From a virus (lineage: Duplodnaviria > Heunggongvirae > Uroviricota > Caudoviricetes), in the IMG/VR virus record IMGVR_UViG_3300030021_000030, positions 1 through 18,562 of that record: DNA of 18,562 nucleotides. One strand, given 5' to 3'. The translations under genes and the position numbers were made by a program. The notes under the pieces were generated by a model. It had not been told where the DNA came from, searched no databases, and was given only the letters and a program-made list of their open reading frames with translations. Positions 1 to 17,973 of this stretch are shown here, piece by piece (within the stretch, counting starts at the first letter, position 1; each line of letters opens with the position of its first letter).

Positions 1-288
1 TCAATGGTTGGCGTCATTATCTTTTTCTCTTTCTGAACGTGAATATTGCGGTGGACGGTTCATCAGCTGTGGGGCAAGACGTTTTGCCACCTGAAGAATA
101 ACCACCACCGCAGCGGGAAACATGAGCAAAACACCGAGAAAAATCATCAGAATCTGCACTTCTGGCCGAGAAAATGGCTCAGGCAGCGACAGGGAGTCGC
201 TTACCGACAGCAGCGCCACCGCCAGTAGCATCATTCCGATAAATTCCAGTATCAACACGCCTTTAGGCAATTTACCGATCGCGCGCAT
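1..288 (-). CDS. ybjC: Small inner-membrane protein YbjC (DUF1418), 95 aa, complete
   Basis: 95-aa ORF whose sequence I recognise as E. coli YbjC; conserved ybjC-grxA-ybjM-ybjL synteny; stop codon at 1-3. Confidence 0.8.
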   Translation of the reverse strand: MRAIGKLPKGVLILEFIGMMLLAVALLSVSDSLSLPEPFSRPEVQILMIFLGVLLMFPAAVVVILQVAKRLAPQLMNRPPQYSRSEREKDNDANH

Positions 289-447
289 ACGCTTCCCTCT
301 GCAAAGTGAGCCTTCAGTCTAAAACTTTTCACTGTATTGTGTTTAACAGTTATAGCTTTTAGCAATTAATGCAACAGGTTAAACCTACTTTCAGCGAATA
401 CATTTTAGCGTGATCATTACAGGCATAAATCTATGAGGAGAGAAATA

Positions 448-705
448 ATGCAAACCGTTATTTTTGGTCGTTCGGGTTGCCCTTACTGTGTGCGTGCAAA
501 AGATCTGGCTGAGAAATTGAGCAATGAACGCGATGATTTTCAGTATCAGTATGTAGATATTCGTGCGGAAGGGATCACTAAAGAAGATCTACAACAAAAG
601 GCAGGTAAACCCGTAGAAACCGTGCCGCAGATTTTTGTCGATCAGCAACATATCGGCGGCTATACCGATTTTGCTGCATGGGTGAAAGAAAATCTGGACG
701 CCTGA
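448..705 (+). CDS. grxA: Glutaredoxin 1 (85 aa)
   Basis: Translation MQTVIFGRSGCPYCVRAKDL... has the CPYC dithiol active site and glutaredoxin fold signature. Start placed at the second ATG (448), preceded by GAGGAGAG Shine-Dalgarno, rather than the ORF-track start at 433. Confidence 0.9.
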   Translation: MQTVIFGRSGCPYCVRAKDLAEKLSNERDDFQYQYVDIRAEGITKEDLQQKAGKPVETVPQIFVDQQHIGGYTDFAAWVKENLDA

Positions 706-715
706 TCGTCTGACA

Positions 716-747
716 AGCCCTCGCGTTGAGGGCTTTACTGATTTTTT
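716..747 (+). terminator. Putative rho-independent terminator downstream of grxA
   Basis: Inverted repeat agccctc (716-722) / gagggct (728-734) with 5-nt loop, followed by a T-rich stretch (tttttt at 742-747). Overlaps the convergent ybjM stop. Confidence 0.45.
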
Positions 748-1112
748 CTGTGCTGTGGTTTAAACAAACTACTGATAAATAAGAAACACAGTGCCCCCAG
801 CGCACACCAGAACACCGCGCTTAGTAACCATGCCAGCTCTTGCCAGAATGAGCGCGTCGGTGAAAAAAACAGCCGCATAATGAGCATTGAACAGGGTGCC
901 GCCAGCATTGCGCCAAATAGAGGTTTCAGGACTTCTCTACGCTGTGAAAAGAAACTGGCAACTGCTCCAGGAAGAATGAAAAATAGCAAGCCGATTTCAG
1001 GATGCCCGGCAGCCCGAAAAGCGCCTTTCATGTGCGTCGCCAGAAAAAGGCACACCACAATGAAGAGGACAAAACAGCAGATTGCCCCCGCCCAACGTTG
1101 TTTATGTTTCAC
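735..1112 (-). CDS. ybjM: Inner membrane protein YbjM (125 aa)
   Basis: 125-aa hydrophobic ORF matching the E. coli YbjM sequence and position between grxA and ybjL. Confidence 0.8.
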   Translation of the reverse strand: MKHKQRWAGAICCFVLFIVVCLFLATHMKGAFRAAGHPEIGLLFFILPGAVASFFSQRREVLKPLFGAMLAAPCSMLIMRLFFSPTRSFWQELAWLLSAVFWCALGALCFLFISSLFKPQHRKNQ

Positions 1113-1381
1113 TCGTTCCTCCTGACACTGCGTCTATCGAACACATTTTTCGCCAGTGTGGCGTTCAGTAAGATAAAGCCGCTTCGCATTCCATGCTAAT
1201 ATAGGCCAACGCAATTCATATAGCCGTTGATACCTAATGTGATTACACTAGTAAAATATATTGTTACTTTACTATCGTTTAGGTGCGCTGAATGAATCTG
1301 CGCCCTGAATTCTGGTAAAAAACATTATCGTAAATTACCATTTCTTTCAACAGCTTACTAGTAAACAAGAAGTTAGCCTCC

Positions 1382-3067
1382 GTGAATATAAACGTCGCCG
1401 AATTGTTAAATGGGAATTACATTCTGTTATTATTTGTGGTCCTCGCGCTTGGGCTATGTCTCGGAAAGTTACGACTTGGTTCGATCCAACTGGGTAATTC
1501 CATTGGCGTTTTAGTCGTATCGCTGTTATTAGGCCAACAACATTTCAGCATTAACACCGATGCGCTTAATCTTGGCTTTATGCTGTTTATTTTCTGCGTC
1601 GGGGTCGAAGCCGGACCGAACTTTTTTTCCATTTTTTTTCGCGATGGGAAAAATTACCTAATGTTAGCACTGGTGATGGTTGGCAGTGCGCTGGTGATCG
1701 CCTTAGGGTTAGGTAAGCTGTTTGGCTGGGATATTGGCCTGACGGCCGGTATGTTAGCAGGCTCTATGACGTCGACACCGGTTCTGGTCGGTGCTGGCGA
1801 TACACTGCGTCATTTCGGCATGGAAAGCAGGCAGCTCTCACTGGCACTGGATAATCTGAGCCTCGGGTATGCCTTAACCTATTTAATCGGTCTGGTGAGT
1901 TTGATTGTTGGTGCGCGTTACTTGCCGAAATTGCAGCATCAGGACTTACAGACCAGCGCCCAGCAAATCGCCCGCGAACGTGGCCTGGACACTGATGCCA
2001 ACCGTAAGGTTTATTTACCGGTGATCCGCGCCTATCGCGTCGGCCCGGAGCTGGTGGCCTGGACCGACGGCAAAAATCTGCGTGAACTGGGTATTTATCG
2101 ACAAACCGGCTGCTACATTGAACGTATTCGACGTAACGGGATTCTGGCAAATCCAGACGGTGATGCCGTGCTACAAATGGGCGATGAAATAGCGTTGGTA
2201 GGCTATCCCGACGCCCATGCCCGACTCGATCCCAGCTTCCGTAACGGTAAAGAAGTTTTCGATCGTGACCTTCTCGACATGCGTATCGTCACTGAAGAAG
2301 TGGTCGTTAAAAACCATAACGCTGTAGGTAAACGTCTCGCACAACTGAAGTTGACCGATCACGGTTGCTTCCTTAACCGCGTCATTCGTAGCCAGATTGA
2401 GATGCCGATAGATGACAACGTCGTGCTTAACAAAGGTGACGTTTTACAAGTCAGCGGCGATGCCCGCCGCGTAAAAACCATCGCCGATCGCATCGGCTTT
2501 ATCTCGATTCACAGCCAGGTCACTGACCTGCTGGCATTTTGCGCCTTCTTTGTTATTGGGCTGATGATCGGGATGATCACCTTCCAGTTCAGCACATTCA
2601 GTTTCGGCATGGGGAACGCTGCCGGGTTGTTATTCGCCGGAATTATGCTGGGCTTTATGCGTGCTAACCACCCGACCTTCGGTTACATTCCGCAAGGTGC
2701 ATTAAGCATGGTGAAAGAGTTCGGCTTGATGGTGTTTATGGCAGGCGTTGGTCTGAGCGCCGGTAGCGGTATTAATAACGGCCTGGGCGCGATTGGCGGT
2801 CAGATGTTGATTGCCGGATTAATTGTCAGTCTTGTGCCCGTGGTTATCTGTTTCTTGTTCGGTGCTTATGTATTGCGAATGAACCGCGCACTGTTGTTCG
2901 GCGCAATGATGGGCGCACGCACCTGCGCGCCGGCAATGGAGATCATCAGTGATACAGCTCGCAGTAACATCCCTGCGCTGGGCTATGCGGGCACCTACGC
3001 AATCGCCAACGTCCTGCTGACGCTGGCAGGGACAATCATCGTCATGGTATGGCCAGGATTAGGATAA
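1382..3067 (+). CDS. ybjL: Putative transporter YbjL (AAE-family permease with two central TrkA-C/RCK_C domains), 561 aa, GTG start
   Basis: 561-aa ORF beginning [20 protein letters not shown]...; hydrophobic N- and C-terminal halves separated by a soluble region; start codon is GTG at 1382. Confidence 0.9.
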
Positions 3068-3179
3068 AACTGAAGTTGCCCTGAAAATGAAATTTTTTTG
3101 CACAACCGCAGAACTTTTCCGCAGGGCATCAGTCTTAATTAGTGCCACTGCTTTTCTTTGATGTCCCCATTTTGTGGAG

Positions 3180-3225
3180 CCCATCAACCCCGCCATTTCG
3201 GTTCAAGGTTGATGGGTTTTTTGTT
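3180..3225 (+). terminator. Rho-independent terminator downstream of ybjL
   Basis: 10-bp perfect stem cccatcaacc (3180-3189) / ggttgatggg (3207-3216) followed by TTTTTT (3217-3222). Confidence 0.6.
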
Positions 3226-3302
3226 GCCTGAAATTTATGCCTTTTAAAATCATGATGTTAGAAGCACTGTTTTTTAACGATGGCGACAAATTGGCGGCAG
3301 CG

Positions 3303-3521
3303 TCAAAGAGAGAGCGCCACCTGTCCTGATTTCATTGGATGCGGCTGAACCGGATTTGACTCTTTTGGCGTTGCAATCGAACGAACAAAAGTTTCATGGG
3401 TAACAAAAGTATGGCTGCAGTTAATGTTCTGGCACTGGTTGTAACGCTCTTTGGTCAATGAAGATACCTGAAAACTGCTGCGAGTATGGGCGGCACTTCC
3501 ACACAGTGGGCAAATCATCAT
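3303..3521 (-). CDS. ogr: Ogr-family late-gene transcriptional activator (zinc finger), 72 aa
   Basis: MMICPLCGSAAHTRSS...KERYNQCQNINCSHTF: Cys-X2-Cys ... Cys-X4-Cys zinc-binding motif typical of P2 Ogr / P4 Delta. Start moved to the internal Met so the product is 72 aa, the length of P2 Ogr. Confidence 0.85.
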   Translation of the reverse strand: MMICPLCGSAAHTRSSFQVSSLTKERYNQCQNINCSHTFVTHETFVRSIATPKESNPVQPHPMKSGQVALSL

Positions 3522-3611
3522 TTTTCGAGTTCTCCCCATTTTTGCTAAATTCACAATAATGATACCGCATTATTCCATTTTGAAAACTTAAAAGTTCTCC
3601 ATTGCGAAGAA

Positions 3612-4712
3612 TCATTCCATTTCGAAATCATCAATCTTCACTTCAAGCTCCAGACTGGTCGTAAAACCGTTATCCGGGCTGACGGTATGTGTCAGAGTCG
3701 TAATGGTCCATTCCGCATCATCTATCGGCTGTTTAAAACCACTGACCTTCACAGGCATTTCCGTGTAGAGATCTGCCCGCCCTTCCGCCAGTTGTAGCGA
3801 GAATGACGCAACGCCGCGTTGCAGGCGTTCCCACTGCATTTTTGCCGCTCGTTCGGCGTTGCTCCGGTTGGCATAAGTGCGATTAAGTACCAGCACGTTT
3901 TCATCCGTCCCCACCAGGTAATCGCCCTGCTTCGCTTCCGGCTCTTTCTTCTGCTTCTTAGTCCTGTGCTTACGCTTCACCGTAGTGCTTTCTTTCTTCG
4001 CGGGTTCGCGGGTATGCAACCAGCTGGCAATTACCCCCGTGTAGGCTCCGCGATCTGCCAGGGTAAAGCGGTGACTGTCGCCGTCCTTGCGTGTGATAGT
4101 GATCACCGGCAGTGGTTTACCAGTGGCGCTTTTGCCCTGTCCCTGCCGGATGAATAACAGATTGCCATTTTTCACCGACGCGATGGCACCGTACTGGCGC
4201 GCCAGCCGCATCAGAAAACTGCCGTCACTCTCATTAGTCTGGTCTATATGCTCCACGGGCTTATCCGACAGGTCTTTACCCAGTGCCATCTTCAGCTTGT
4301 GACGCGCGGCTATTTCCTTCACCACTTCCCCGACAGTGGTCTTGTGCCACGATTTTTCACGGCGGGTATTCAGCGTTTCCCTAAAATCAGCACTTCGCGC
4401 CCGGATAGTCAGGCGATCCGGTGCGCCAGTGTGTTCAATCTCGTCCACCGTGAATGCCCCTTTCGGGAAAAGCGGCTGCCCCTTCCAGCCCAGCGCCAGC
4501 GTAATGACCGCACCACGGCGCGGCAGCACGATTTTTCCGTCGGCGTCGTCCAGCTCCAGATCAAGCTGGTCCGCTTCAAAGCCCCGGTTATCCGTCAGCG
4601 TAAGCCCCATCAGGCGGTTGACCAGCACAGTGGTGATATCCTTGCCTTCAATACTGATGCTGAATGCTGGAGTTTTGTTGCCTTTGTTAAGCAGTTCAGA
4701 GCTGAAATTCAC
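3612..4712 (-). CDS. D: P2 gpD-like tail protein (late control gene D family)
   Basis: 366-aa ORF with the LTDNRGFEADQLDLELDDADG and WAV-type motifs characteristic of gpD; lies between U and ogr as in P2. Confidence 0.9.
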   Translation of the reverse strand: MNFSSELLNKGNKTPAFSISIEGKDITTVLVNRLMGLTLTDNRGFEADQLDLELDDADGKIVLPRRGAVITLALGWKGQPLFPKGAFTVDEIEHTGAPDRLTIRARSADFRETLNTRREKSWHKTTVGEVVKEIAARHKLKMALGKDLSDKPVEHIDQTNESDGSFLMRLARQYGAIASVKNGNLLFIRQGQGKSATGKPLPVITITRKDGDSHRFTLADRGAYTGVIASWLHTREPAKKESTTVKRKHRTKKQKKEPEAKQGDYLVGTDENVLVLNRTYANRSNAERAAKMQWERLQRGVASFSLQLAEGRADLYTEMPVKVSGFKQPIDDAEWTITTLTHTVSPDNGFTTSLELEVKIDDFEME

Positions 4713-5194
4713 GACAGCAGCCCTCCCACCGTTTTACTGATATCGCTTAAGGCAGACGTTGCCGTATCCTGCAAATTATTCAGCTGCGCACTGAGATCAC
4801 CGAACATATCGGACAGGGATTCATCCACCCGTTTGAGCGACAGGGTGAACTCAATCCGGCGCGGCATACCATCGCGGAAAAACTCCGTTTTAGTCTGATT
4901 CAGTCCCTCAATCACATACATGCCGTAAATCGTGCCGCTGCCTTCAATCAGGGGCCATGCTTTTCCCTGTTCTGCCATCTGCTCCAGAGCCAGCAACGAC
5001 AGCCTGCCGCCCGTTATCTCTGGCATAAGAACACCAGAAAGCGTCAGCATGTCGTTGTCCGGTCCCAGAAACTGCGTGGACGGACGTCGGTTGACCCGGC
5101 TGTTTGCCGCATGTCGCCAGCTGCGTTGATACTGCAGTTCCTGATACGGCACAGTGCGCAGCATAAACACGTACAATCCCAGCACCATCATCAT
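4709..5194 (-). CDS. U: P2 gpU-like tail protein
   Basis: 161-aa ORF in the P2 position between T and D; 4-nt ATGA overlaps with both neighbours. Confidence 0.85.
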   Translation of the reverse strand: MMMVLGLYVFMLRTVPYQELQYQRSWRHAANSRVNRRPSTQFLGPDNDMLTLSGVLMPEITGGRLSLLALEQMAEQGKAWPLIEGSGTIYGMYVIEGLNQTKTEFFRDGMPRRIEFTLSLKRVDESLSDMFGDLSAQLNNLQDTATSALSDISKTVGGLLS

Positions 5195-8100
5195 GCGTCG
5201 TATCCCCCCTGATCGCTGTAGTTACTCCTGGCTTTTGCCTTCAGCCTGCGTTCACGTTCATCAAGCTGACGTGCCACCTCCCGCGCAATATCCTGCGCAC
5301 TTTGTCCTGGCTGCGTCTGAATGATGATCTGCATCGGTGCCTCAATCCGCTGAACGGGCGGCACAGTGGCTGCACGACTCACCATCGCTTCGTCGCCTTT
5401 CGCGGGAAGTGCCAAAGGGTGCAACGGTGGAAACTCTGCTGGCGCGGCAGCAACGCCCATCATTCCGGCAACAACGGCAGCCAGTGCAGCTGTATTTCTC
5501 CGGCTGGTCACATTTGCCGGGCCGTTAACAATTTCCGGCCCGTTTTCACCGACGATGCCAAACTGCCCGCGCGGGATATACCCGCCGCTGTCATACATCC
5601 CCGCAAAGCCATATCCCCATGACGGAAAACCACCCGATGGCATCATCACTTTACCGTCTGCATTCACCGTCGCAGGTTGCTGACGCGTCACGCTTTCCGG
5701 CAGTTTCGCCTTTGCAGCTTCTTTACTGACAATGCCGAGTTTATCCAGCAACCAGGAAACACCGGATTTCAGGGAGTCCAGCGGATGCATGACCATATTC
5801 AGCCCTTCCGCCAGTGCCTCCCCGAATCGTCGCCCCATTGCCGCTGCGCTCTGCAGTTCGGCAGAGGTCGACTTAACAGGCGTCAGCAGATTAGTAAACC
5901 AGCCCCACAGCGCCTGTACTTTGTCGCCAATCCACTGAAACACAGGCTTAAGTGGTTCGAATGCAGCACTGATGGGACCTGCCGCCGCTTTGAATCCTTC
6001 CACCACGCCACCGAGAAATGCGGTGATGGGTTGCCAGTATTTCCAGACAACCAGCGCTACGCCTGCCAGTGCAGTAACCACAAGACCTATCGGACTGAGC
6101 AGAGCACCTAACAGACCAGATATGGCATACAGGGCAACGCGCAGCATCGCCAGCGGACCGGATGCCAGCACACGAAGCACCGTGCCTGCGGAGGCCAGTC
6201 CACCGCGCAGTACCGCCAGAGGATTCATAAACATCACAGCAACAGCACGTAAACCGGATAATCCAGACCGCAAAAGTGCAACCGGCGCACCTGCTACAGT
6301 TTTCAGGACATTTCCCGTCAGTGATGCCGTGCGGCGCAAAGACGACAACGGCGCAGTAAGTAAACCTGCGGCGTTGCCCGATGAAGCAAGCCCGCGTCGC
6401 AGCAGTGCCAGTGGTGCGCAAGCTAACCAGGACAACGCGCTGCTGGTTCGTGTTACTGCTGCCGTAACGGAAGGTAACGTTTTGATACCCAGCACAGCAG
6501 CCAACACCACAGCCAGGGTGCCGAGGCCCACAGTAACAGCAGCCACAACCGCGGCTACTTTCATCAGTGTGCCCGTCAGTTCAGGGTTAGCTTCCACCCA
6601 GCGACGCAACGCCCCCGTGATGCTTTTCACCGTGTACAGAATATCCATCAGCGGCTGGCGCAGCGTTTCGCCCAGGCTGCTGAAGGTGTTCTGCGCTCCG
6701 GTTTTGACCAGCAACCACTGCGCAGAAAGTGAGTCCTTGTTAATGTCGGATTCTTTCTGCATCGAACCGAGCGCATCATTGCCCGCTGTCAGTTTTAGCT
6801 GGCGCTGCAGTTCCGGCAGGTTGTTTGCCAGTTTCGCCGCATCATCGCCAAACTCTTTACCAAACAACATGGTCATGGCAGACAGGCGCTTATCCTGCGG
6901 CAGTGCGTTCACCTTCTCCAGTACGCGCTGGATAGTTCCCATCGCATCCTTCGTCATCTGCTTTTCAATCACTTCAGGATTGAGTTTCAGCAGATTCATT
7001 CCTTCAAAGAAACTCTTGCTTTGCATGGTCGCAATGGACAATTCACGCACCATCGCGTTGGCAGCACTGGCAGCGACCTCCGGCGCAGCCCCCAGTGTCA
7101 GGAAGGTGGAACCCAGCGCCGCCGCTTTACGATAATCCAGACGATCAGCCACACCGCCCAGGCGTTGCATGACATCAATGATGTCTGCCCCTTTCGACAT
7201 AGCGTTATCATCCAGATAGTTCAGCGCATCACCGAGCTGTTCAATATTGCGGGTTGGTATTTTGTAGAGCTGGGCGATTTTCCCCAGACTTTCTGACAGT
7301 TCATCCGCTGGCAGCTCAAAGGCTGTTGCCGCCTTTGCTGCCGTACTGGCGAAGGCCAGCAGGTCACGTTTCTGGTCCTCCCAGCTGTCGTCAGGGTTTG
7401 CCACATTCATGCGCGCACCACCTTCAACCAGTGCGGCGAAGTCCACAGCACCGTTTTCCATTGGCAGCTGTTCACTGGCAGCTTTGATGGCATCCTGCAT
7501 TTCGTAAAAACGCGCAGTGCGGTTGCCATTATCGTCACGCAGACCATTGACCTGCTTTGCCACACCTTTCATGGCATCTTCCATGCTGGTATAGCTTTTT
7601 ACCGCCGCCATCACTGGCGCGCCCATTGCCAGCCCTGCAGCCGTGGTGGTGGCTCCGGCTCCTGCGATGCGATCGCGCACTTCAAGCCGTCTTGAGTATT
7701 GTTCTCTGGCAGCCTTCATCCGTGCCTGTTGTTCACCCAGACGTTTAAGTGCTTTTTGCTGGCCCTCCAGTGCCTGACGAGTTTCTTCGGCATTTTTCTT
7801 AAGTTCTCGCTGGGCACTACTGAGTTGTCTGGTATCAATCCCTGATTCTTTAAGTGCCTGACGTTGTCTCTGGACCGCCCCCAACAAGCCGTTATAGGTC
7901 TGCTGAAGTTCCTGTACTCGTGTTTTGGCCTGACTGAATAACTTTGCCTGCGCGGCGGTTGGCCTGTTAGTGGCAGCAAATTGTGTGGCGAGTTTTGCCG
8001 CCTCTTCGCGGGCTGCGTTCAGGTTGTTGGCTGTTATGGCTAGTTGCGAGCGCGTCTTGCGAAATTCATCAATTCTGCCAGCCTGCTTATTCAGTTCTTT

Positions 8101-8229
8101 GAGGCTGTTTCGGGTATTCTGAATTGCGCCAGCCAGCTCTTTCGAACTGGCCTGTGCAGCACGGAATGGGCGGGTGAGTTTGTCAACCGCATTAAGAATG
8201 ACCTGCAGGCGCAGGTTATTATCACTCAT
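5191..8229 (-). CDS. T: Tail tape-measure protein (gpT-like), 1012 aa
   Basis: Very long ORF with an N-terminal coiled-coil/Ala-rich region and central hydrophobic Gly/Ala repeats, in the canonical position after E/E'. Its ATG overlaps the E' stop (ATGAGTGA). Confidence 0.9.
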   Translation of the reverse strand: MSDNNLRLQVILNAVDKLTRPFRAAQASSKELAGAIQNTRNSLKELNKQAGRIDEFRKTRSQLAITANNLNAAREEAAKLATQFAATNRPTAAQAKLFSQAKTRVQELQQTYNGLLGAVQRQRQALKESGIDTRQLSSAQRELKKNAEETRQALEGQQKALKRLGEQQARMKAAREQYSRRLEVRDRIAGAGATTTAAGLAMGAPVMAAVKSYTSMEDAMKGVAKQVNGLRDDNGNRTARFYEMQDAIKAASEQLPMENGAVDFAALVEGGARMNVANPDDSWEDQKRDLLAFASTAAKAATAFELPADELSESLGKIAQLYKIPTRNIEQLGDALNYLDDNAMSKGADIIDVMQRLGGVADRLDYRKAAALGSTFLTLGAAPEVAASAANAMVRELSIATMQSKSFFEGMNLLKLNPEVIEKQMTKDAMGTIQRVLEKVNALPQDKRLSAMTMLFGKEFGDDAAKLANNLPELQRQLKLTAGNDALGSMQKESDINKDSLSAQWLLVKTGAQNTFSSLGETLRQPLMDILYTVKSITGALRRWVEANPELTGTLMKVAAVVAAVTVGLGTLAVVLAAVLGIKTLPSVTAAVTRTSSALSWLACAPLALLRRGLASSGNAAGLLTAPLSSLRRTASLTGNVLKTVAGAPVALLRSGLSGLRAVAVMFMNPLAVLRGGLASAGTVLRVLASGPLAMLRVALYAISGLLGALLSPIGLVVTALAGVALVVWKYWQPITAFLGGVVEGFKAAAGPISAAFEPLKPVFQWIGDKVQALWGWFTNLLTPVKSTSAELQSAAAMGRRFGEALAEGLNMVMHPLDSLKSGVSWLLDKLGIVSKEAAKAKLPESVTRQQPATVNADGKVMMPSGGFPSWGYGFAGMYDSGGYIPRGQFGIVGENGPEIVNGPANVTSRRNTAALAAVVAGMMGVAAAPAEFPPLHPLALPAKGDEAMVSRAATVPPVQRIEAPMQIIIQTQPGQSAQDIAREVARQLDERERRLKAKARSNYSDQGGYDA

Positions 8230-8658
8230 CGTTGGCCCCGCTTCTCTGAATCGCTTTATACCGCCATTCCAGCACTTCGGTCAGCGGCATAACGTCAGTA
8301 ACGGATGGCGGCCAGTGAAAGATGGTGGCGATATCAGCCACCAGATCGTCAACCGTCAGGCTGTCGGTAAACCGGCAAGCACCGACTTCTTCAACAAAAA
8401 AGTGACAACCTCAACCGACATGGCAGTGAGATCTGCCGGGTCCATCTCTGCAATTTCCTGTGCAGTCAGTGCCGGACTGGAGATGCGGGGGATCACGGTC
8501 ATCATCGCGTTTACATCCATATCCATAATGGCCTGCAGGCGTGTACCGCGCAGCGCACCGGACTGCGGTTTACGCAGCACAATTTCGGTGATTTCTGTTT
8601 TACCGCGCTTGATGGGGGTATCCAGTTGAATGGTCTTTTCAGTCTGCTTATCGCTCAT
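8222..8658 (-). CDS. E: Tail assembly chaperone gpE and the frameshifted fusion product gpE+E' (E alone is 8356..8658; E' extension is in the -1 frame, 8222..8395)
   Basis: 100-aa gpE-like ORF; the T_TTT_TTG slippery heptamer sits at codons F87-L88. Manual translation of the -1 frame from the slip site gives a 59-codon open extension (VEEVGACRFTDSLTVDDLVADIATIFHWPPSVTDVMPLTEVLEWRYKAIQRSGANDE) ending at a TGA that overlaps the T start codon. Confidence 0.8.
8395..8401 (-). other. Programmed -1 ribosomal frameshift slippery site T_TTT_TTG (E/E')
   Basis: Minus-strand sequence ACT TTT TTG read directly from plus-strand caaaaaa (8395-8401); same heptamer as the P2 E/E' site. Confidence 0.75.
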
Positions 8659-8712
8659 TTTGCTGTCCTGTCAATTGGGTTCTGGCGCGGTATCCCGCGC
8701 CGTTCAGATATA

Positions 8713-9228
8713 TCAGAGGCCGAGGGCGTTGCGGTGCGCTTCCATCAGGTCCACACCGTCCACAATTTCCACCATGTTGATAAGGTCCACTTCATAGAGC
8801 ACCTCACCATTGATGGTCAGCTTCGCGTAGCTGTTGGTACTGGTCACTTTGGTGGTGTTGCTTTCGCCCGTCTTCCACTCGCCGGAATCCACTTCTTTGT
8901 GACGTCCACGCACGACAAGCTCCACGGCCTGCACTTCCCCGGTATCGTCACGCTGAATAGAGCCGGTAAAGCGCAGCTGGATGCCATCCACCGTGGCTTT
9001 ACCCATCTGTTTAAACAGCAGCAATTCAGTACCACCAATGGAAAATTCTGTGTCCAGCGCACTGTCATCAAGCCCCAGATCCACATCAACTGCACCAGGC
9101 ATTCCGCCGCCGCGATACTTCTCATATTTGCGGGTGAATTTCGGCAGCGTCAGCGACTCAACGATCCCCTGCCAGTTGTTCCCGTCGTTAAACAGGTTCA
9201 GGTGTTTTAATTTGCGTGGTAAAGCCAT
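8713..9228 (-). CDS. FII: Major tail tube protein (gpFII-like)
   Basis: 171-aa ORF beginning MALPRKLKHLNLF..., recognisable as the P2 FII tail tube family; follows FI. Confidence 0.9.
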   Translation of the reverse strand: MALPRKLKHLNLFNDGNNWQGIVESLTLPKFTRKYEKYRGGGMPGAVDVDLGLDDSALDTEFSIGGTELLLFKQMGKATVDGIQLRFTGSIQRDDTGEVQAVELVVRGRHKEVDSGEWKTGESNTTKVTSTNSYAKLTINGEVLYEVDLINMVEIVDGVDLMEAHRNALGL

Positions 9229-9237
9229 GTTGTCCCC

Positions 9238-10410
9238 TTACGCGCTGACCTGGCTGGCGAAATTCACCAGGTACTGATCGGTGATGCGCTGACGCAGCAT
9301 CAGGTTTTCAAGTGGCGGCACTGGCGTGTAGTCGTAGTCGATGGTGAGTTTTCCGGCTTTCAGCGTGTCTTTGTCGTTCACCGACTCATCCAGCCAGCAA
9401 TCACCACCAATGAGATAGCCCTGACTGACCAGGCTGCGCATTTTGGCGCGGATACCTTCGATAATGTCGCGGGCCAGCGACGGGTTAAGCGGTTTATCCA
9501 CCGCCCACATGTGTGCTTCTGCCATCGTGTCCATCAGCACCTGCGCCGTGCGGGTGTAGTTTTCGAAGGCAAAGAGCGGGTCATCACTCAGACAGCGGGA
9601 ACCCCAGAAGCGGAAACCGTCTTTACGCACAAGCGTAGTGACGTCGTTCTGGTTCAGCAGACCTGCATCGGTTGCCGGGTCCTGCAGATCCCAGAACACA
9701 TCTGCAGAAATTCCGGTGACACCGTTCACGCCCACGTTGGACAGGCTTTTGTGCCATCCGGTCTGCTCGTCAATTTTGGCGCGCAGACCAAGCGCACGGG
9801 CGGTGGCATATGCCGTTGCTTCGGCATTCAGCACCGTGTCCCAGCCAGTAAAGTCAGGCCAGATCAGCATCCCTTCGCGCTGGCTGAAGTTTTCGCGGTA
9901 AGTGATCGCCTCCTGCACTGTCTTGCAGCCATACGCTGACAGGTAAGCAAATCCACGCAGGCTTTGCGCCACGCTCAGCAACTCAGTAGCTACCGCCTTG
10001 GTGTCGTGGCCTGGCACGCCGAGAATGCGCGGTTTAACGCCGAGCTGTGACTGGGCAGATAACAGGGCTTTCATACCTGTTTTTTTACCTTCAGCAGTCA
10101 CTGCGCCGATGATATTGGTCGTGGTTTCGTCTTCCGTTTCACCCTGCGGCACACGCACAACAATGGTCACGGGTTTTGCCTGGTCAGCGATGGCATCCAG
10201 CGAACGGGCCAGAGTACCTGACTCACCCGCTTTACCGCTGGCAGTCAGCACATCAGTGATCAGCACGGGTTTATTAAGAGGAAACATTTTTGCATCGGCA
10301 TCATCGCCCGTGCAGACCATACCCACGATGGCGGTGCTCACCGTGGTAATAGATCGGGTGCCTTCGTTGACTTCAACAACGCGCACCCCGTGGTGGTAAT
10401 CCTGAGCCAT
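9238..10410 (-). CDS. FI: Contractile tail sheath protein (gpFI-like)
   Basis: 390-aa ORF ([19 protein letters not shown]...[11 protein letters not shown]...[20 protein letters not shown]) closely resembling P2 FI along its whole length. Confidence 0.9.
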
Positions 10411-10552: not shown

Positions 10553-11119
10553 TCAGGGGGATTCATTGCTCTTATTTGCCGGAAATTTTCTATAAATGGT
10601 AGAAACGCCTACATCAAAAATCAGTGCAATACGCTGTCTTGATTCTCCGGCCTCGAGTAAACGCCCAATCTGTGCCCACTGTTCGGTGGTCAACTTAGGA
10701 CGGCGTCCACCTACTCTGCCTTTGGCACGAGCTGCAGCCAGCCCTGCCATGGTACGTTCAACTATCAGTTCGCGTTCCATTTCAGCCATGGCACCCATGA
10801 CATGAAAAAAGAAACGGCCCATTGGGGTGCTGGTATCAATACTGTCAGTCAGACTTCGGAAATTCACGCCACGCTGACGCAACTCTTCTATCAGCGTAAC
10901 AAGATGCCGCATACTGCGCCCCAACCTGTCCAGCTTCCAGACAACCAGAGTGTCTCCTGCCGATAGTGTCCTGAGCAGTTTTTTAAGCCCCGGTCTGTCG
11001 GACTTAGTGCCACTGATTTTATCCTCAAAAATCCGCTCACATCCCGCGCAGTTCAGTGCATTACGTTGCAAATCGGTGTTCTGGTCATTTGTTGACACGC
11101 GTACATAGCCAATAAGCAT
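10553..11119 (-). CDS. Serine recombinase, DNA invertase of the Gin/Hin/Pin/Cin family
   Basis: Translation from the internal Met: MLIGYVRVSTNDQNTDLQ...VVWKLDRLGRSM...FFFHVMGAMAEMERELIVERT...C-terminal HTH. The catalytic Ser is in the YVRVSTNDQ motif. GGGA Shine-Dalgarno lies upstream of the ATG at 11119. Confidence 0.85.
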   Translation of the reverse strand: MLIGYVRVSTNDQNTDLQRNALNCAGCERIFEDKISGTKSDRPGLKKLLRTLSAGDTLVVWKLDRLGRSMRHLVTLIEELRQRGVNFRSLTDSIDTSTPMGRFFFHVMGAMAEMERELIVERTMAGLAAARAKGRVGGRRPKLTTEQWAQIGRLLEAGESRQRIALIFDVGVSTIYRKFPANKSNESP

Positions 11120-11174
11120 GATCAATCCCCTGAATAAAAACCGTGGATGATGCCAGTTAGCCATTATCTCTGCA

Positions 11175-11200
11175 TTTTCATAAACGTTGGTTTGGGAGAA
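11175..11200. repeat. gix/hix-like 26-bp invertase crossover site (invertase-proximal)
   Basis: TTTTCATAAACGTTGGTTTGGGAGAA fits the Hin/Gin site consensus TTnTCnnAAACCnnGGTTTnnGAnAA and is 20/26 identical to the reverse complement of the site at 12275-12300. Confidence 0.6.
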
Positions 11201-11545
11201 GCGGCGAAAAGGGGTGTGGGCACAGGAGATAATCAGATACCGGATATGGGAGCATTCGCTTCTGGTTCGGGATGGTTCAGGCTACCAGGTGGATATATTG
11301 TTCAGTTTGGCACTTTTGCAGGAAACACGACCCGCTTTATCAGTGGACACTTCCCTATACCATTCCCTAATCAGCCGATGGTTTCAGTCAGTGTTATGTC
11401 TGATGCCGTTCAGTCAGACCCGTCGATTCCTGCCCCGCAGGTTTTGTCTGTAAATTTTGAACATATCAGTAATTCAGCGTGGCGTGTGGCAACCAGTGAT
11501 ATCTCACAGCAATACAGATTCAGTTATATTTCGATAGGACGGTAG
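11201..11545 (+). CDS. Promoterless alternative tail-fibre C-terminal segment (Sv'-like), expressed only after inversion
   Basis: Open frame runs through the gix-like site and encodes ...GWFRLPGGYIVQFGT..., parallel to the current H C-terminus ...GYFELPGGLLLQWGH... There is no plausible independent start; the ORF-track Met at 11147 lies inside the invertase gene region. Confidence 0.6.
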   Translation, partial: AAKRGVGTGDNQIPDMGAFASGSGWFRLPGGYIVQFGTFAGNTTRFISGHFPIPFPNQPMVSVSVMSDAVQSDPSIPAPQVLSVNFEHISNSAWRVATSDISQQYRFSYISIGR

Positions 11546-11547
11546 AA

Positions 11548-11973
11548 ATGCAGAAATATATTTTCAGTGCCGATAAAAATGCGTTTTTCCCTGTGGAGCT
11601 TAAAATCGCTTATCAGGAATCCGGCGAATGGCCCGATGATGGAATCGAAATTGACGACACTGTTGCCGCCGAATTTATGAAGGAAGCACCAGAAGGAAAA
11701 TACAGAGGTGTCATCGACGGAATGCCAGCATGGATTGATATTCCACCACCAACTCATGAGGAACAAATTGCTGCAGCCGAATTGGAAAAGCAGCAATTGA
11801 TTAATCAGGTCAACGAATACATAAACAGTAAGCAGTGGCCTGGCAAATCGGTGCTTGGACGCCTGAAAGATGATGAATTAACGCAGTACAATTTATGGCT
11901 GGATTATCTTGATGCGCTGGAAGCGGTGGACGTATCCAGCGCTCCAGATATTGTTTGGCCCTCCTCAACCTAA
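11548..11973 (+). CDS. Tail fibre assembly chaperone (Tfa/gpG/Mu U family)
   Basis: 141-aa ORF immediately after the Sv' segment (3-nt gap) with the conserved C-terminal Tfa-like region ...QYNLWLDYLDALEAV...; opposite strand to H. Confidence 0.75.
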   Translation: MQKYIFSADKNAFFPVELKIAYQESGEWPDDGIEIDDTVAAEFMKEAPEGKYRGVIDGMPAWIDIPPPTHEEQIAAAELEKQQLINQVNEYINSKQWPGKSVLGRLKDDELTQYNLWLDYLDALEAVDVSSAPDIVWPSST

Positions 11974-12001
11974 ATAAAAAGCCGCTCTACGCGGCTTTCT
12001 C

Positions 12002-13336
12002 TTACATCCCGAGTGCAAAATACGTATAGCTGTCAATATTGTTTACCGTGCCGTTTCCATTCCATCCATAAAGGCTAAAGCTAGTTAAGGTATAATTAGA
12101 TGACGTCACATACCGACCATCAGTTGTGATTTTATGCGGCAGTACAATGAACGGAGTGACGTTAAACGACTTCTTAAACTGTATAATGGCACTTGACGCA
12201 TGAATCGAGCCGTGCCCCCATTGCAGCAGCAATCCTCCCGGTAATTCAAAGTACCCATCAGCCTCCAGTAACCGCTCTCCAAAACCAAGGTATGTGAGAA
12301 GACCAGTTACATCCTTTCCACTCAAATTAGTCAGCGTATTGTCCAGCGGTTGTTTACCTGCCAGTGCATTAAGCATTGTCGTGGCAAAGTTCGGGTCATT
12401 CCCCAGCGCCGCCGCCAGTTCGTTCAGTGTATCCAGTGCCGCAGGTGCAGAACCCACCATTGCCGCAATCGCCGATTTCACAAATGCCGTGGTGGCAATT
12501 TGTGTATTGTTGACCGACTGTGCCGCAGTAGGTGCGGTTGGCGTTCCGGTGAGTGCCGGACTCGACAGCGGCGCTTTCAGTGCCAGCGCATTGTTAATGG
12601 TGGTACTGAATTTCGGATCATTGTTAATGGCTGCGGCTATTTCTTTCAGCGTGTCCAGCGTGGCTGGCGCACCATTAATAAGAGCCGTCAGAGCCGCCTG
12701 AACAAACTCGGTGGTCGCAATCTGCGTGGTGTTATTCCCTGCTGCTGGCGTTGGCGCTTTGGGTGTCCCGGTAAACGTCGGACTTTCTTTGGGTGCATAC
12801 TGTGAATGCGGGTCCGGTGCGGCAAGATGTTTTGCCATCAGGTCATCCACGTACACCTTCAACTCCAGTGCTTTGTCATCCACATACTTGCGGGTTGCCA
12901 GCACTACAGCAGGGTCGATTTTCAGGGTGATATTGTCCGTGCTGCTGGTTATCAGCACCATGCGCACGGTCTGGGTGCGCCCGCTGCCTTCAGCCAGTTG
13001 CGGCTTATAGCTTTCCGGGCAGTTGCCCACGGCAATCAATGCCCCGGACTCATCAAACAGGCCCACTTCACGTATCCACCAACCACCCTCGTTTTCAGGG
13101 ATCACCTGTTCAGCAATAATCTGGCTGCTGTTCTGCGGGTCGATATAAAGCATATTCAGCGCAGCCCGGCGTTTCTCATTTACCAGTGCCGTCTGCTTTG
13201 CGTCCGGCGTTGGCAATACTCCGCCGCCATCGCCCACCGCCATATGAGTAATTTTTAGCGGCACACCGAGCGCGGCGGCGCTGGCAAGTTTCGCCGCGCC
13301 AATATCCGTTAGCAGGGTATAAAATTTTGTGCTCAT
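12002..13336 (-). CDS. H: Tail fibre protein (gpH-like): constant N-terminal part plus the currently fused variable C-terminal tip
   Basis: 444-aa ORF with the conserved P2/Mu/P1 tail-fibre N-terminus (MSTKFYTLLTDIGAAKLASAAALG...) and repeated TQIATTEFV / TQIATTAFV collar motifs. The last ~90 codons lie inside the invertible segment. Confidence 0.9.
   Translation of the reverse strand: MSTKFYTLLTDIGAAKLASAAALGVPLKITHMAVGDGGGVLPTPDAKQTALVNEKRRAALNMLYIDPQNSSQIIAEQVIPENEGGWWIREVGLFDESGALIAVGNCPESYKPQLAEGSGRTQTVRMVLITSSTDNITLKIDPAVVLATRKYVDDKALELKVYVDDLMAKHLAAPDPHSQYAPKESPTFTGTPKAPTPAAGNNTTQIATTEFVQAALTALINGAPATLDTLKEIAAAINNDPKFSTTINNALALKAPLSSPALTGTPTAPTAAQSVNNTQIATTAFVKSAIAAMVGSAPAALDTLNELAAALGNDPNFATTMLNALAGKQPLDNTLTNLSGKDVTGLLTYLGFGERLLEADGYFELPGGLLLQWGHGSIHASSAIIQFKKSFNVTPFIVLPHKITTDGRYVTSSNYTLTSFSLYGWNGNGTVNNIDSYTYFALGM
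12275..12300. repeat. gix/hix-like 26-bp invertase crossover site inside H
   Basis: CTCTCCAAAACCAAGGTATGTGAGAA; its reverse complement TTCTCACATACCTTGGTTTTGGAGAG encodes LTYLGFGE of H and matches the site at 11175-11200 in inverted orientation. Confidence 0.6.
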
Positions 13337-15872: not shown

Positions 15873-17129
15873 ATGTATAAAATTCAAAGCGTCACAATTA
15901 ATGGCTTTTGGCAGCGATTAAACTGTTCCTGCTCATTTAATGATGATGTAAATATTATTATAGGCCGAAATGGCACGGGTAAAACAACCTTTATGAACCT
16001 TCTGCACTCAATATTATCCCTTGATTTGGACAGTATTAACAATGCTGATTTCAATAGTGCCGAAATAAAACTTAAAGATAAAAAAAAGACAAAAACAATC
16101 AAAGTCAAAAAACTTGAAAGCGATACATCTCCATTTTCCAAAATAGAATATCAGCTTTCATCTAAAAAACACACAATTCGTTTATTTAACACTGATGATA
16201 GAAGAATATCTCTTAGTTATAGACGTAGAGTGCATGATGAAACAGAAGAACTAAGAACAGAACTAGCAAAACTAGTCTCGCTTTCTTCTTTATCTGTTTA
16301 CAGATTAAGAAATAGTGATGATTTTGAAGTTAAAGATAAATATGGCTCTCGTTTTATCAACCCTGTTGACTATAAGTTATCAGAATTAATACAGGAACTT
16401 ACAAAATATCAACTTGAACTATCCCAGAAAGCCAGAGATATCGCATTAGAACTGCAAAAAGAGGTTCTGGCATCAATACTTTATAGCAAGGAAGATATGG
16501 AGAATCCTGCTTACAACATTAACTTTAACAAAGAGGAAGAAAAACAAAACCTCCTTAATGCATACACACAGTTAAATGCTATTGATCAAAACATTCGTAA
16601 AAAAATCAGCTTTCATGTTGAAACAATTAATAATACCATTTCGGAATTAAAGAATAAAAGTGAAAGTGGCTTTGATATTCGTTCGATCGAAGCATTGAGA
16701 AAAACACAAAAAATAATCAAAATGTCATTAACTTCAAAAGAGAAAACATCAAAAATATTTTCTCCAATAGAACAATTCTTAAGCATACTAAGAAATTTTA
16801 TCACCGATAAAGAATTTCATTTTCAATCGGGATTGTTAGTCATAAATAACACCTATGGGCCAATAGTTTTAGAAAGTTTATCTTCTGGTGAAAAACAACT
16901 GCTAATTTTATTCATTGAGACCCTCTTACAAAGAGGGCAACAATATATTTTCCTAACTGATGAGCCTGAGCTTTCCTTACATATTCAATGGCAAAGAAAT
17001 ATTATCCCTGCCATAAAAAAATTAAATCCTAATGCACAAATTATTGCTGCAACCCATTCTCCTGAAGTTGCATCTAAATATAAAAACGCCATTTTCAATA
17101 TGGAGAGATTAGTCAATGCTAATCAATGA
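15873..17129 (+). CDS. ABC/SMC-like ATPase (AAA_15/AAA_21-type), 418 aa; candidate AriA-like component of a PARIS-type defence system
   Basis: Walker A GRNGTGKTT (aa 31-39), ABC signature LSSGEKQ (aa 336-342), Walker B YIFLTDEPE (aa 358-366), H-loop AATHS (aa 392-396). A Lys/Glu-rich, probably coiled-coil insertion separates Walker A from the signature. The region is strongly AT-rich relative to the flanking phage. Confidence 0.8.
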   Translation: MYKIQSVTINGFWQRLNCSCSFNDDVNIIIGRNGTGKTTFMNLLHSILSLDLDSINNADFNSAEIKLKDKKKTKTIKVKKLESDTSPFSKIEYQLSSKKHTIRLFNTDDRRISLSYRRRVHDETEELRTELAKLVSLSSLSVYRLRNSDDFEVKDKYGSRFINPVDYKLSELIQELTKYQLELSQKARDIALELQKEVLASILYSKEDMENPAYNINFNKEEEKQNLLNAYTQLNAIDQNIRKKISFHVETINNTISELKNKSESGFDIRSIEALRKTQKIIKMSLTSKEKTSKIFSPIEQFLSILRNFITDKEFHFQSGLLVINNTYGPIVLESLSSGEKQLLILFIETLLQRGQQYIFLTDEPELSLHIQWQRNIIPAIKKLNPNAQIIAATHSPEVASKYKNAIFNMERLVNANQ

Positions 17130-17973
17130 TTCTAATGCAGAAAACTTTTCTTGGTCTAATGAAGCGGAAAATGTGATCAGTTTATTTTATGATGCTGATA
17201 TTATGGTCTATGTTGAAGGTGAAGATGACATTGCTTTTTGGGAAATAATTTTTAAAAAAAATGGTCGTTTTAATGTAGAAGTTCAAGATGTTGGTGGATG
17301 TGAAGCTTTACAACCATATATCGAAAAAATAACCTCAGGAGAAATAAACGCCATAGTTGCCAGAGATTCGGATCTAAACCATTTTTCTGACAACATAGTA
17401 AAGCATACAAATATTATTTACACAAAGGGATATTCAATAGAAAACACAATCATTGATGAAAAAATCATATCACACATACTCAAAAACACAGGCCGTTTTT
17501 GCACGAAAAAAATGCAGGAAATAGATGTGGAAAATTGGCTTTCTAATTTCTATAGCAACATTGAGAACTTAATAATACTAGATATTCACAATCATTTAAA
17601 TAAATTAGGATGCTCCGTAATTGGTGATTCCTGTGATCGTTTTATGCAATCAAGAAATTCATACAATATATGCAAGGAAAAAATAGATGAATATATCAAT
17701 AGACTACCTGAATCGTTTACTACTAATGGTTTAGCAGAAAAAAACAACATTCAATTCCCAGAAAATACATCTATAAATCATTGGGTGAAAGGGCACTTTC
17801 TTTTCTCAGCATCATTAAGATTTATAACAAACTTTTTGGCATCCATCAATAAAAAAACCTCTATATCCAAGGATAGTTTTTACGCAAACATCTTGTCTGC
17901 ATTTGAGATTTTTTATACAGAAGAACATGCTGATTATAGTTATTACAATCAAAAGATAGGGGCCATCACATAA
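17116..17973 (+). CDS. TOPRIM/DUF4435-like putative nuclease, 285 aa; candidate AriB-like effector
   Basis: N-terminal VYVEGEDD (conserved Glu, aa 34) and ARDSD (DxD, aa 84-86) resemble TOPRIM metal-binding motifs of OLD/DUF4435 proteins. The start overlaps the ATPase stop by 14 nt, with a GAGAGA Shine-Dalgarno inside the upstream gene. Confidence 0.7.
   Translation: MLINDSNAENFSWSNEAENVISLFYDADIMVYVEGEDDIAFWEIIFKKNGRFNVEVQDVGGCEALQPYIEKITSGEINAIVARDSDLNHFSDNIVKHTNIIYTKGYSIENTIIDEKIISHILKNTGRFCTKKMQEIDVENWLSNFYSNIENLIILDIHNHLNKLGCSVIGDSCDRFMQSRNSYNICKEKIDEYINRLPESFTTNGLAEKNNIQFPENTSINHWVKGHFLFSASLRFITNFLASINKKTSISKDSFYANILSAFEIFYTEEHADYSYYNQKIGAIT

Follow-up and report, generated by a model that had tools for sequence, protein, structure and literature searches.

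A very probable programmed -1 frameshift at the E/E' locus of a P2-like prophage tail operon

In phage P2, a -1 shift at the sequence TTTTTTG of gene E leads to products of 91 and 142 aa, according to PMC3091744 (citing Christie 2002 and Xu 2004). The GenBank record of this phage (NC_001895) contains entries for gene E, for a CDS that joins E with E' and for a "site of -1 translational frameshift", and describes both E products as essential tail proteins; the facts on P2 used here were taken from this annotation and from secondary citations. In the G/GT system of phage lambda the two products appear at a ratio of 30:1; G attaches to the tape measure and T to the tube protein (PMC5009743). Most tail-chaperone frameshifts of dsDNA tailed phages need no 3' structure (PMC3091744, PMC5009743).

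We analyzed a stretch of 18,562 nt from a virus of the class Caudoviricetes (IMG/VR record IMGVR_UViG_3300030021_000030), hereafter the window, which carries on its minus strand the gene order FI-FII-E-T-U-D-ogr, identical to that of P2 (Table 1). The E/E' pair is located between the tail tube gene FII and the tape-measure gene T, and it is the context of FII that defines the chaperone position; the tail genes neighboring E/E' are full-length, as judged with Pfam. A 571-nt region containing E/E' is 98–99% identical to sequences from Escherichia phage Cartapus (Peduoviridae, Elveevirus), phage 500465-1 and many Klebsiella phages; of 5,426 complete genomes of E. coli, about 1,000 contain a homologous segment. 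The Elveevirus prophages and phages (Cartapus, 500465-1, Klebsiella phage KP12 and others) have the same gene order as the window and do not differ from it in anything substantive, their records listing E' as a 39-aa CDS of its own and not as a joined product. The prophage is P2-like and belongs to the Elveevirus type of the Peduoviridae. A search for the inverted repeats of an invertible tail-fibre segment yielded none of 16 nt or longer. Recognition of the E/E' site bears out the integrity of the tail module in this prophage.

Table 1. Coordinates of the E/E' locus, its candidate signals and the surrounding tail genes in the window.
Feature	Position	Strand	Basis
Sheath gene FI	10410..9238	-	Pfam
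Tail tube gene FII, immediately 5' of E	9228..8713	-	Pfam Phage_tube, 8.8e-60
Gene E (zero frame), 100-aa tail assembly chaperone	8658..8356	-	ORF list and translation
SD-like GAGG, candidate upstream stimulator	8412..8409	-	7 nt 5' of the heptamer
Slippery heptamer T_TTT_TTG, putative -1 shift site	8401..8395	-	Register and P2 alignment column
E' extension, -1 frame	8395..8222	-	Coordinates, Pfam, P2 similarity, third-position variation
Two mutually exclusive candidate hairpins, 6–8 nt 3' of the heptamer	8388..8363	-	Folding
GTG, public start of the 39-aa "GpE family phage tail protein"	8341..8339	-	Homologous public CDS
Tape-measure gene T, 1012 aa	8229..5191	-	PhageMin_Tail, 1.9e-18 (Pfam); TIGR01760, 1.3e-93 (NCBIfam)
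GpU gene	5194..4709	-	Pfam
GpD gene (GPD)	4712..3612	-	Pfam
ogr	3554..3303	-	

Gene E extends from an ATG at 8658..8656 to a TGA at 8358..8356, and its product is 44% identical to P2 gpE. A Pfam scan assigned residues 9–88 of the zero-frame protein to PF10109 (Phage_TAC_7; E = 1e-18, 67.5 bits against a cut-off of 25), with profile positions 1–78 of 79 matched; PF10109 was the only family found in this protein, which lacks PF06528. The slippery heptamer T_TTT_TTG begins with the last base of codon 86 (ACT), continues through codons 87 (TTT) and 88 (TTG), and is followed by 12 zero-frame codons. It thus lies in the X_XXY_YYZ register, which is the register required for tandem -1 slippage. The location at E codons 87–88 proposed in the first-pass annotation was therefore verified, and the interval 8222–8401 that it assigned to the feature is exact, its limits being the final base of the E' stop and the first base of the heptamer, although it omitted that the feature is on the minus strand. 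Screening nine late genes for in-register X_XXY_YYZ heptamers retrieved four, one of them T_TTT_TTG; this one alone is situated near the 3' end of its gene and has a -1 frame that reaches the start of the next gene. The E/E' arrangement is not due to chance. Additionally, the heptamer is made of minority codons (in the late genes of the window prophage, ACT represents 21% of the Thr codons and TTG 9% of the Leu codons), yet the run of six T is invariant in 62 distinct related sequences.

The -1 frame re-reads G8395 and continues for 57 codons until a TGA at 8224..8222, and this extension translates as VEEVGACRFTDSLTVDDLVADIATIFHWPPSVTDVMPLTEVLEWRYKAIQRSGANDE; joined to codons 1–88 of E, it gives an E+E' product of 145 aa. 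Counted from an upstream stop at 8413, the -1 frame is open for 62 codons in total, and the 59 codons reported previously agree with our analysis when the count starts at the first T of the heptamer, corresponding to 57 after TTG. In the Pfam scan (threshold E ≤ 0.01), the extension matched the complete profile of PF06528 (Phage_P2_GpE; E = 2.9e-18, positions 1–37 of 37) at residues 107–143 of the fusion, so that the 145-aa product displays Phage_TAC_7 (2e-18) at residues 9–88 followed by Phage_P2_GpE. NCBIfam models gave no match to the E+E' fusion, and a profile search by sequence against the PDB found no relatives of E/E' (best E-value 0.42).

For comparison with P2, the 142-aa E+E' protein was rebuilt from the locus in NC_001895. 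The fusion from the window aligned with it without gaps across the junction, with 68 of 139 residues identical (49%; E = 4e-51), whereas the E' extension by itself was 56% identical to P2 E' along all of its residues (57/57; E = 8e-24). The first-pass annotation had considered that a -1 extension without similarity to the E' regions of P2-like phages would refute its proposal; the similarity found here shows the contrary, and homology, register and gene position all agree with the arrangement of P2 E/E' that it had recognized. P2 also has T_TTT_TTG, at codons 84–85, and this heptamer, the frameshift site annotated in NC_001895, shares its alignment column with the one from the window; the offset of three codons is due to three extra N-terminal residues in E from the window. 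Likewise, both loci have a 57-residue extension in the -1 direction, contain the same Pfam families and are placed between FII and T. They differ in the length of E (100 aa in the window and 91 aa in P2, with 12 and 6 zero-frame codons past the slip site, respectively), in that of the fusion (145 versus 142 aa) and in that of the tape measure, which is longer in the window (1012 aa) than the product of the P2 T gene (2448 nt, about 815 aa).

The end of E' overlaps the first codons of T. The ATG of T (8229..8227) is within the motif ATGAGTGA, which also contains the E' stop, and the two ORFs overlap by 8 nt. The previous observation that the E' TGA is embedded in the motif holding the T start was thus correct, but the stop does not overlap the ATG itself and instead covers codons 2–3 of T. 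The stop occupies the same two T codons in P2, where the sequence is ATGAGTAA; the consensus of both motifs is ATGAGTRA, with TGA as the E' stop in the window and TAA in P2. The junction GATGAGTGA is present in 76 of 80 IMG/VR relatives, and in 13 of 15 diverse loci the E' stop overlaps the beginning of T. One idea is that this conserved overlap could couple part of the translation of the tape measure to frameshifted ribosomes.

With the fused protein as tblastn query, 425 phage records were retrieved, 388 of which cover at least 80% of the fusion; among the 40 matches listed, all those of full length were in two pieces, which denotes a change of frame. A -1 shift is required in every one of 15 diverse loci of Peduoviridae examined, with identity in E as low as 33%, and all 15 contain an in-register heptamer where both frames are open, in one common alignment column: T_TTT_TTG in ten of them, T_TTT_TTT in two, and T_TTT_TTC, C_CCT_TTC and A_AAT_TTT in one each. 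Among IMG/VR relatives (58–97% protein identity), the -1 shift was found in 80/80 loci with the T6 run invariant, as T_TTT_TTG (74/80) or T_TTT_TTA (6/80). Altogether, the -1 shift and an in-register heptamer at the common column are present in 95/95 loci. Alternative heptamers, T_TTC_CCG or G_GGT_TTC, were considered as sites in eight of the IMG/VR loci and discarded, as the canonical T6 lies upstream in each of them. Upstream zero-frame third positions have a mean conservation of 0.69, and between -90 and +6 only three of 33 such positions are invariant in 62 distinct sequences, two of which are inside the heptamer. The conservation of the slippery site and of the -1 coding capacity among relatives indicates purifying selection on the recoding signal.

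Homopolymer runs are typical spots for indels and sequencing errors, and the split between E and E' could in principle reflect a frameshift mutation, or a sequencing error, in a single 145-aa gene of a decaying prophage. The occurrence of the same -1 arrangement in all 15 diverse phages and all 80 IMG/VR contigs leaves this explanation with a negligible probability, particularly as the arrangement is shared by phages sequenced from viable virions (P2, phiCTX, KS5, EtG and Cartapus). Additionally, the zero-frame stop is always found 6–22 codons past the site in the 15 diverse loci, and the neighboring tail genes of the window are not truncated.

The T6 homopolymer also raises the possibility of transcriptional slippage, in which RNA polymerase would add an extra U to the U6 run and the ribosome would not slip. 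An insertion of one base in the mRNA would produce a nearly identical protein, differing at the junction (...TFFVEE... against ...TFLVEE...), and a minor contribution of this process is compatible with the sequence alone. Productive slippage by the RNA polymerase of E. coli normally needs runs of about 8–9 or more. The feature conserved among the loci is the X_XXY_YYZ register relative to the frame of E, and canonical heptamers that are not homopolymeric occupy this very column in Kp4845-1 (C_CCT_TTC) and P88_4B11 (A_AAT_TTT). These two heptamers fit re-pairing by two tRNAs and not stuttering by the polymerase, and the maintenance of the heptamer pattern while its sequence varies is a signature of dual-tRNA slippage that argues against a process dependent on a homopolymer. 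We therefore consider transcriptional slippage, as the main source of E+E', to be very improbable, and ribosomal frameshifting remains our preferred reading.

In public databases, E' most often appears as a gene by itself. A separate 120-nt CDS for E', starting at the GTG that corresponds to 8341 in the window, is annotated in an E. coli RefSeq record, in phage Cartapus and in many other records, and PF06528 spans residues 107–143 of the fusion only, coinciding with this 39-aa ORF; under this view, the T6 run would be incidental and no frameshift would occur. Several results contradict it. In the 15 nt that separate the E stop from the GTG (8356..8342), the three positions of the -1-frame codons have conservation values of 0.987, 1.0 and 0.726, and the 18 nucleotide versions of this segment encode TVDDL, TVEDL or TIDDL only. 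No ATG, GTG or TTG was found in the -1 frame 5' of the GTG in 59 of 62 sequences. Conservation with a variable third position and the scarcity of start codons point to translation of the -1 frame by ribosomes that initiated elsewhere, so E' is very probably not free-standing. Likewise, the similarity to P2 E' is not limited to the last 39 residues and covers the whole 57-residue extension from the heptamer, the sequence 5' of the GTG (gacgatctgGTG) is not SD-like, and the heptamer pattern is kept in every locus of the set of 95. A joined product is annotated in a minority of records, including those of P2, KS5, EtG, Smp131 and L-413C. An independent E' gene thus has very little probability, and the GTG at 8341 most likely encodes a Val inside E+E' and does not serve as a start. 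These comparisons indicate that the annotation of a free-standing 39-aa gene is wrong for the lineage of the window. The 145-aa fusion is invisible to ORF callers, and RefSeq/PGAP and most of the phage records carry an artefactual 39-aa "GpE family" gene, which affects about a thousand E. coli genomes. The main importance of the site hence resides in the quality of annotation: it is an already known site, orthologous to a textbook recoding site and present in an abundant prophage lineage, and it leaves the concepts established with P2 and lambda unchanged.

With a high degree of confidence, we interpret the locus as the E/E' programmed -1 ribosomal frameshift of the tail operon of a P2-like prophage. 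Most ribosomes would terminate at the TGA at 8358..8356 and release the 100-aa E protein. A minority would slip with tRNA-Phe on UUU (codon 87) in the P site and tRNA-Leu on UUG (codon 88) in the A site; both tRNAs would re-pair one base back, onto UUU_UUU, and reading would resume at G8395, now in the -1 frame, and proceed through 57 codons to the TGA at 8224..8222, generating the 145-aa E+E' protein with the predicted tandem-slippage junction peptide ...VVTFLVEEVGACR... A fixed frequency of slippage would set the ratio of E to E+E'. Taking lambda gpG/gpGT as a model, the E part common to both products would coat the tape measure T and the rare E' domain would recruit the tube protein FII, so that polymerization of the tube would start on the tape measure; as deduced from P2 and lambda, neither E nor E+E' would stay in the virion. 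For the window locus, we infer the slipping, its frequency and the binding partners from these described systems.

The likeness to lambda G/GT is functional. As in lambda, the window has two overlapping ORFs between the major tail or tube gene and the tape-measure gene, with the -1 slip predicted near the end of the first ORF and a fusion product proposed to be made at low frequency. The Pfam scan (E ≤ 0.01) matched PF10109 and PF06528 only and did not place E or E' in the families of lambda gpG or gpT; the comparison with lambda made in the first-pass annotation consequently stands for a functional analog and not for a sequence relative. The slippery sequences differ as well, with G_GGA_AAG in lambda, and lambda, a siphovirus, has a non-contractile tail, whereas that of the window has a sheath (FI).

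The first-pass annotation had also suggested looking for a stimulatory stem-loop downstream of the heptamer. We folded 40, 60, 90 and 95 nt after the heptamer from the window and from 14 relatives, and obtained two candidate hairpins in the window, AAGUCGGU-GCUU-GCCGGUUU and GUCGGUG-N10-UACCGAC. Folding of 40 nt gave -12.3 kcal/mol as the minimum free energy (z about -2), and folding of 95 nt gave z = -1.33; in distant relatives, z ranged from -2.7 to +0.9 and the hairpins of the window were absent. When the hairpins were mapped on 31 distinct sequences of the lineage, 85–89% of the cells paired and the RNAalifold consensus was -2.95 kcal/mol. Covariation among these 31 sequences was not above that of column shuffles, in a test of low power because the region is coded in two frames, and a scan of positions 7900–8800 against Rfam (E ≤ 1) retrieved no match. 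With this limit of a dual-coded region, neither shuffling nor covariation lends support to the stem-loop, and we discarded the hairpins as established stimulators, because they are weakly stable, lack covariation and are not family-wide. This agrees with PMC3091744, in which no hairpins are reported for P2 and the Burkholderia P2-like phages (KS5, KS14 and KL3).

A different candidate is situated 5' of the heptamer. The SD-like GAGG of the window would pair with the anti-SD at -6.3 kcal/mol, and the sequence at the same place in P2 (UAAGGUGG) would do so at -8.1 kcal/mol; duplexes of -6 kcal/mol or better were found in 7 of the 15 diverse loci, compared with 16% of background windows. Furthermore, the third base of the GAG codon is the sole invariant zero-frame third position outside of the heptamer (33 positions in 62 sequences), and GAG is the minority codon for Glu (32%) in the late genes of the prophage. 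The spacing of the GAGG falls inside the range of 6–17 nt described for SD stimulators in PMC4066793, the main text of which does not mention the efficiency of U_UUU_UUG. The GAGG falls on a conserved E/K-V dipeptide, and the loci compared share ancestry; we therefore regard it as a lead and not as a result. That the P2-like E/E' shift might be tuned by an SD-like element pairing with 16S rRNA, as in dnaX, rather than by a 3' structure, is a tentative and unlikely proposition.

The comparison with dnaX from E. coli illustrates both the similarity and the differences of the two systems. The dnaX site (A_AAA_AAG) and the heptamer from the window share the X_XXY_YYZ format for tandem slippage, and in dnaX the site has an SD-like element on its 5' side and a hairpin on its 3' side, whose equivalents in the window are candidates only. 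The outcome is also opposite, because the shift in dnaX truncates the product, whereas the shift in E/E' would extend it.

In RefSeq/PGAP and most phage records, E' is annotated as a separate 39-aa 'GpE family phage tail protein' that starts at an internal GTG, and the joined -1 frameshift CDS is absent from those records; CDSs of the same kind occur in an E. coli RefSeq record (L001) and in phage Cartapus (L002). Judged by the conservation pattern upstream of the internal GTG, this free-standing E' is an annotation artefact. An SD-like GAGG precedes the slippery heptamer of the E/E' frameshift, and its synonymous third-position G does not vary among 62 distinct relatives; P2 has UAAGGUGG at the matching position. 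This element may stimulate the frameshift from upstream, as in dnaX.

Gene T also contains an in-register G_GGA_AAT heptamer, after which the -1 frame is open for 120 codons. The alternative-frame ORF that includes this stretch is probably a chance ORF of GC-rich coding sequence.

Coordinates of the features described, in the window unless another record is named
Feature	Position	Strand	Remarks
SD-like GAGG	8409-8412	-	7 nt 5' of slippery heptamer
Annotated E' CDS	8222-8341	-	
Annotated E' CDS, same kind	L001 9073-9192; L002 1573-1692		
In-register G_GGA_AAT	6316	-	T codon 639
Alternative-frame ORF, 157 aa	5948-6421	-	inside T
DUF1418	288..1	-	
Glutaredoxin	433..705		
YbjM	1112..735	-	
Permease	1382..3067		Asp-Al_Ex/TrkA_C
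Serine invertase	10553..11164	-	Hin/Gin family; Resolvase + HTH_7
Tail-fibre tip fragment	11147..11545	+	Gp53-like_C
Tail-fibre assembly gene	11548..11973	+	Caudo_TAP
Tail-fibre gene H	13336..12002	-	faced by the two plus-strand fibre genes
AAA_15/AAA_21 ATPase, 418 aa	within 15873-17973	+	PADLOC AriA match, 7.6e-39
285-aa protein	within 15873-17973	+	AriB match, 4.1e-22

The left end of the window (1-3300) is chromosomal DNA, and from the genes that it carries the prophage end can therefore be placed within the T-rich DNA of positions ~3068-3300, immediately beyond ogr (3554..3303). A second E. coli genome contains an E/E' region with 99.5% identity that adjoins ssrA instead, so integration sites differ within this prophage lineage.

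The invertase gene adjoins the Gp53-like_C and Caudo_TAP genes, the whole region spanning positions 10553-13336. Together with the opposed fibre genes, this arrangement resembles the Mu G segment and similar switches that change host range by inversion, but a search for the inverted repeats of such a segment found none of at least 16 nt.

Behind the baseplate gene V there is a plus-strand insert of two genes, with a GC content of ~0.30-0.36 versus ~0.55 in the phage late genes. From their database matches, these AriA-like and AriB-like genes make up a PARIS-type anti-phage defence cargo, sited where the P2-like prophage is variable.
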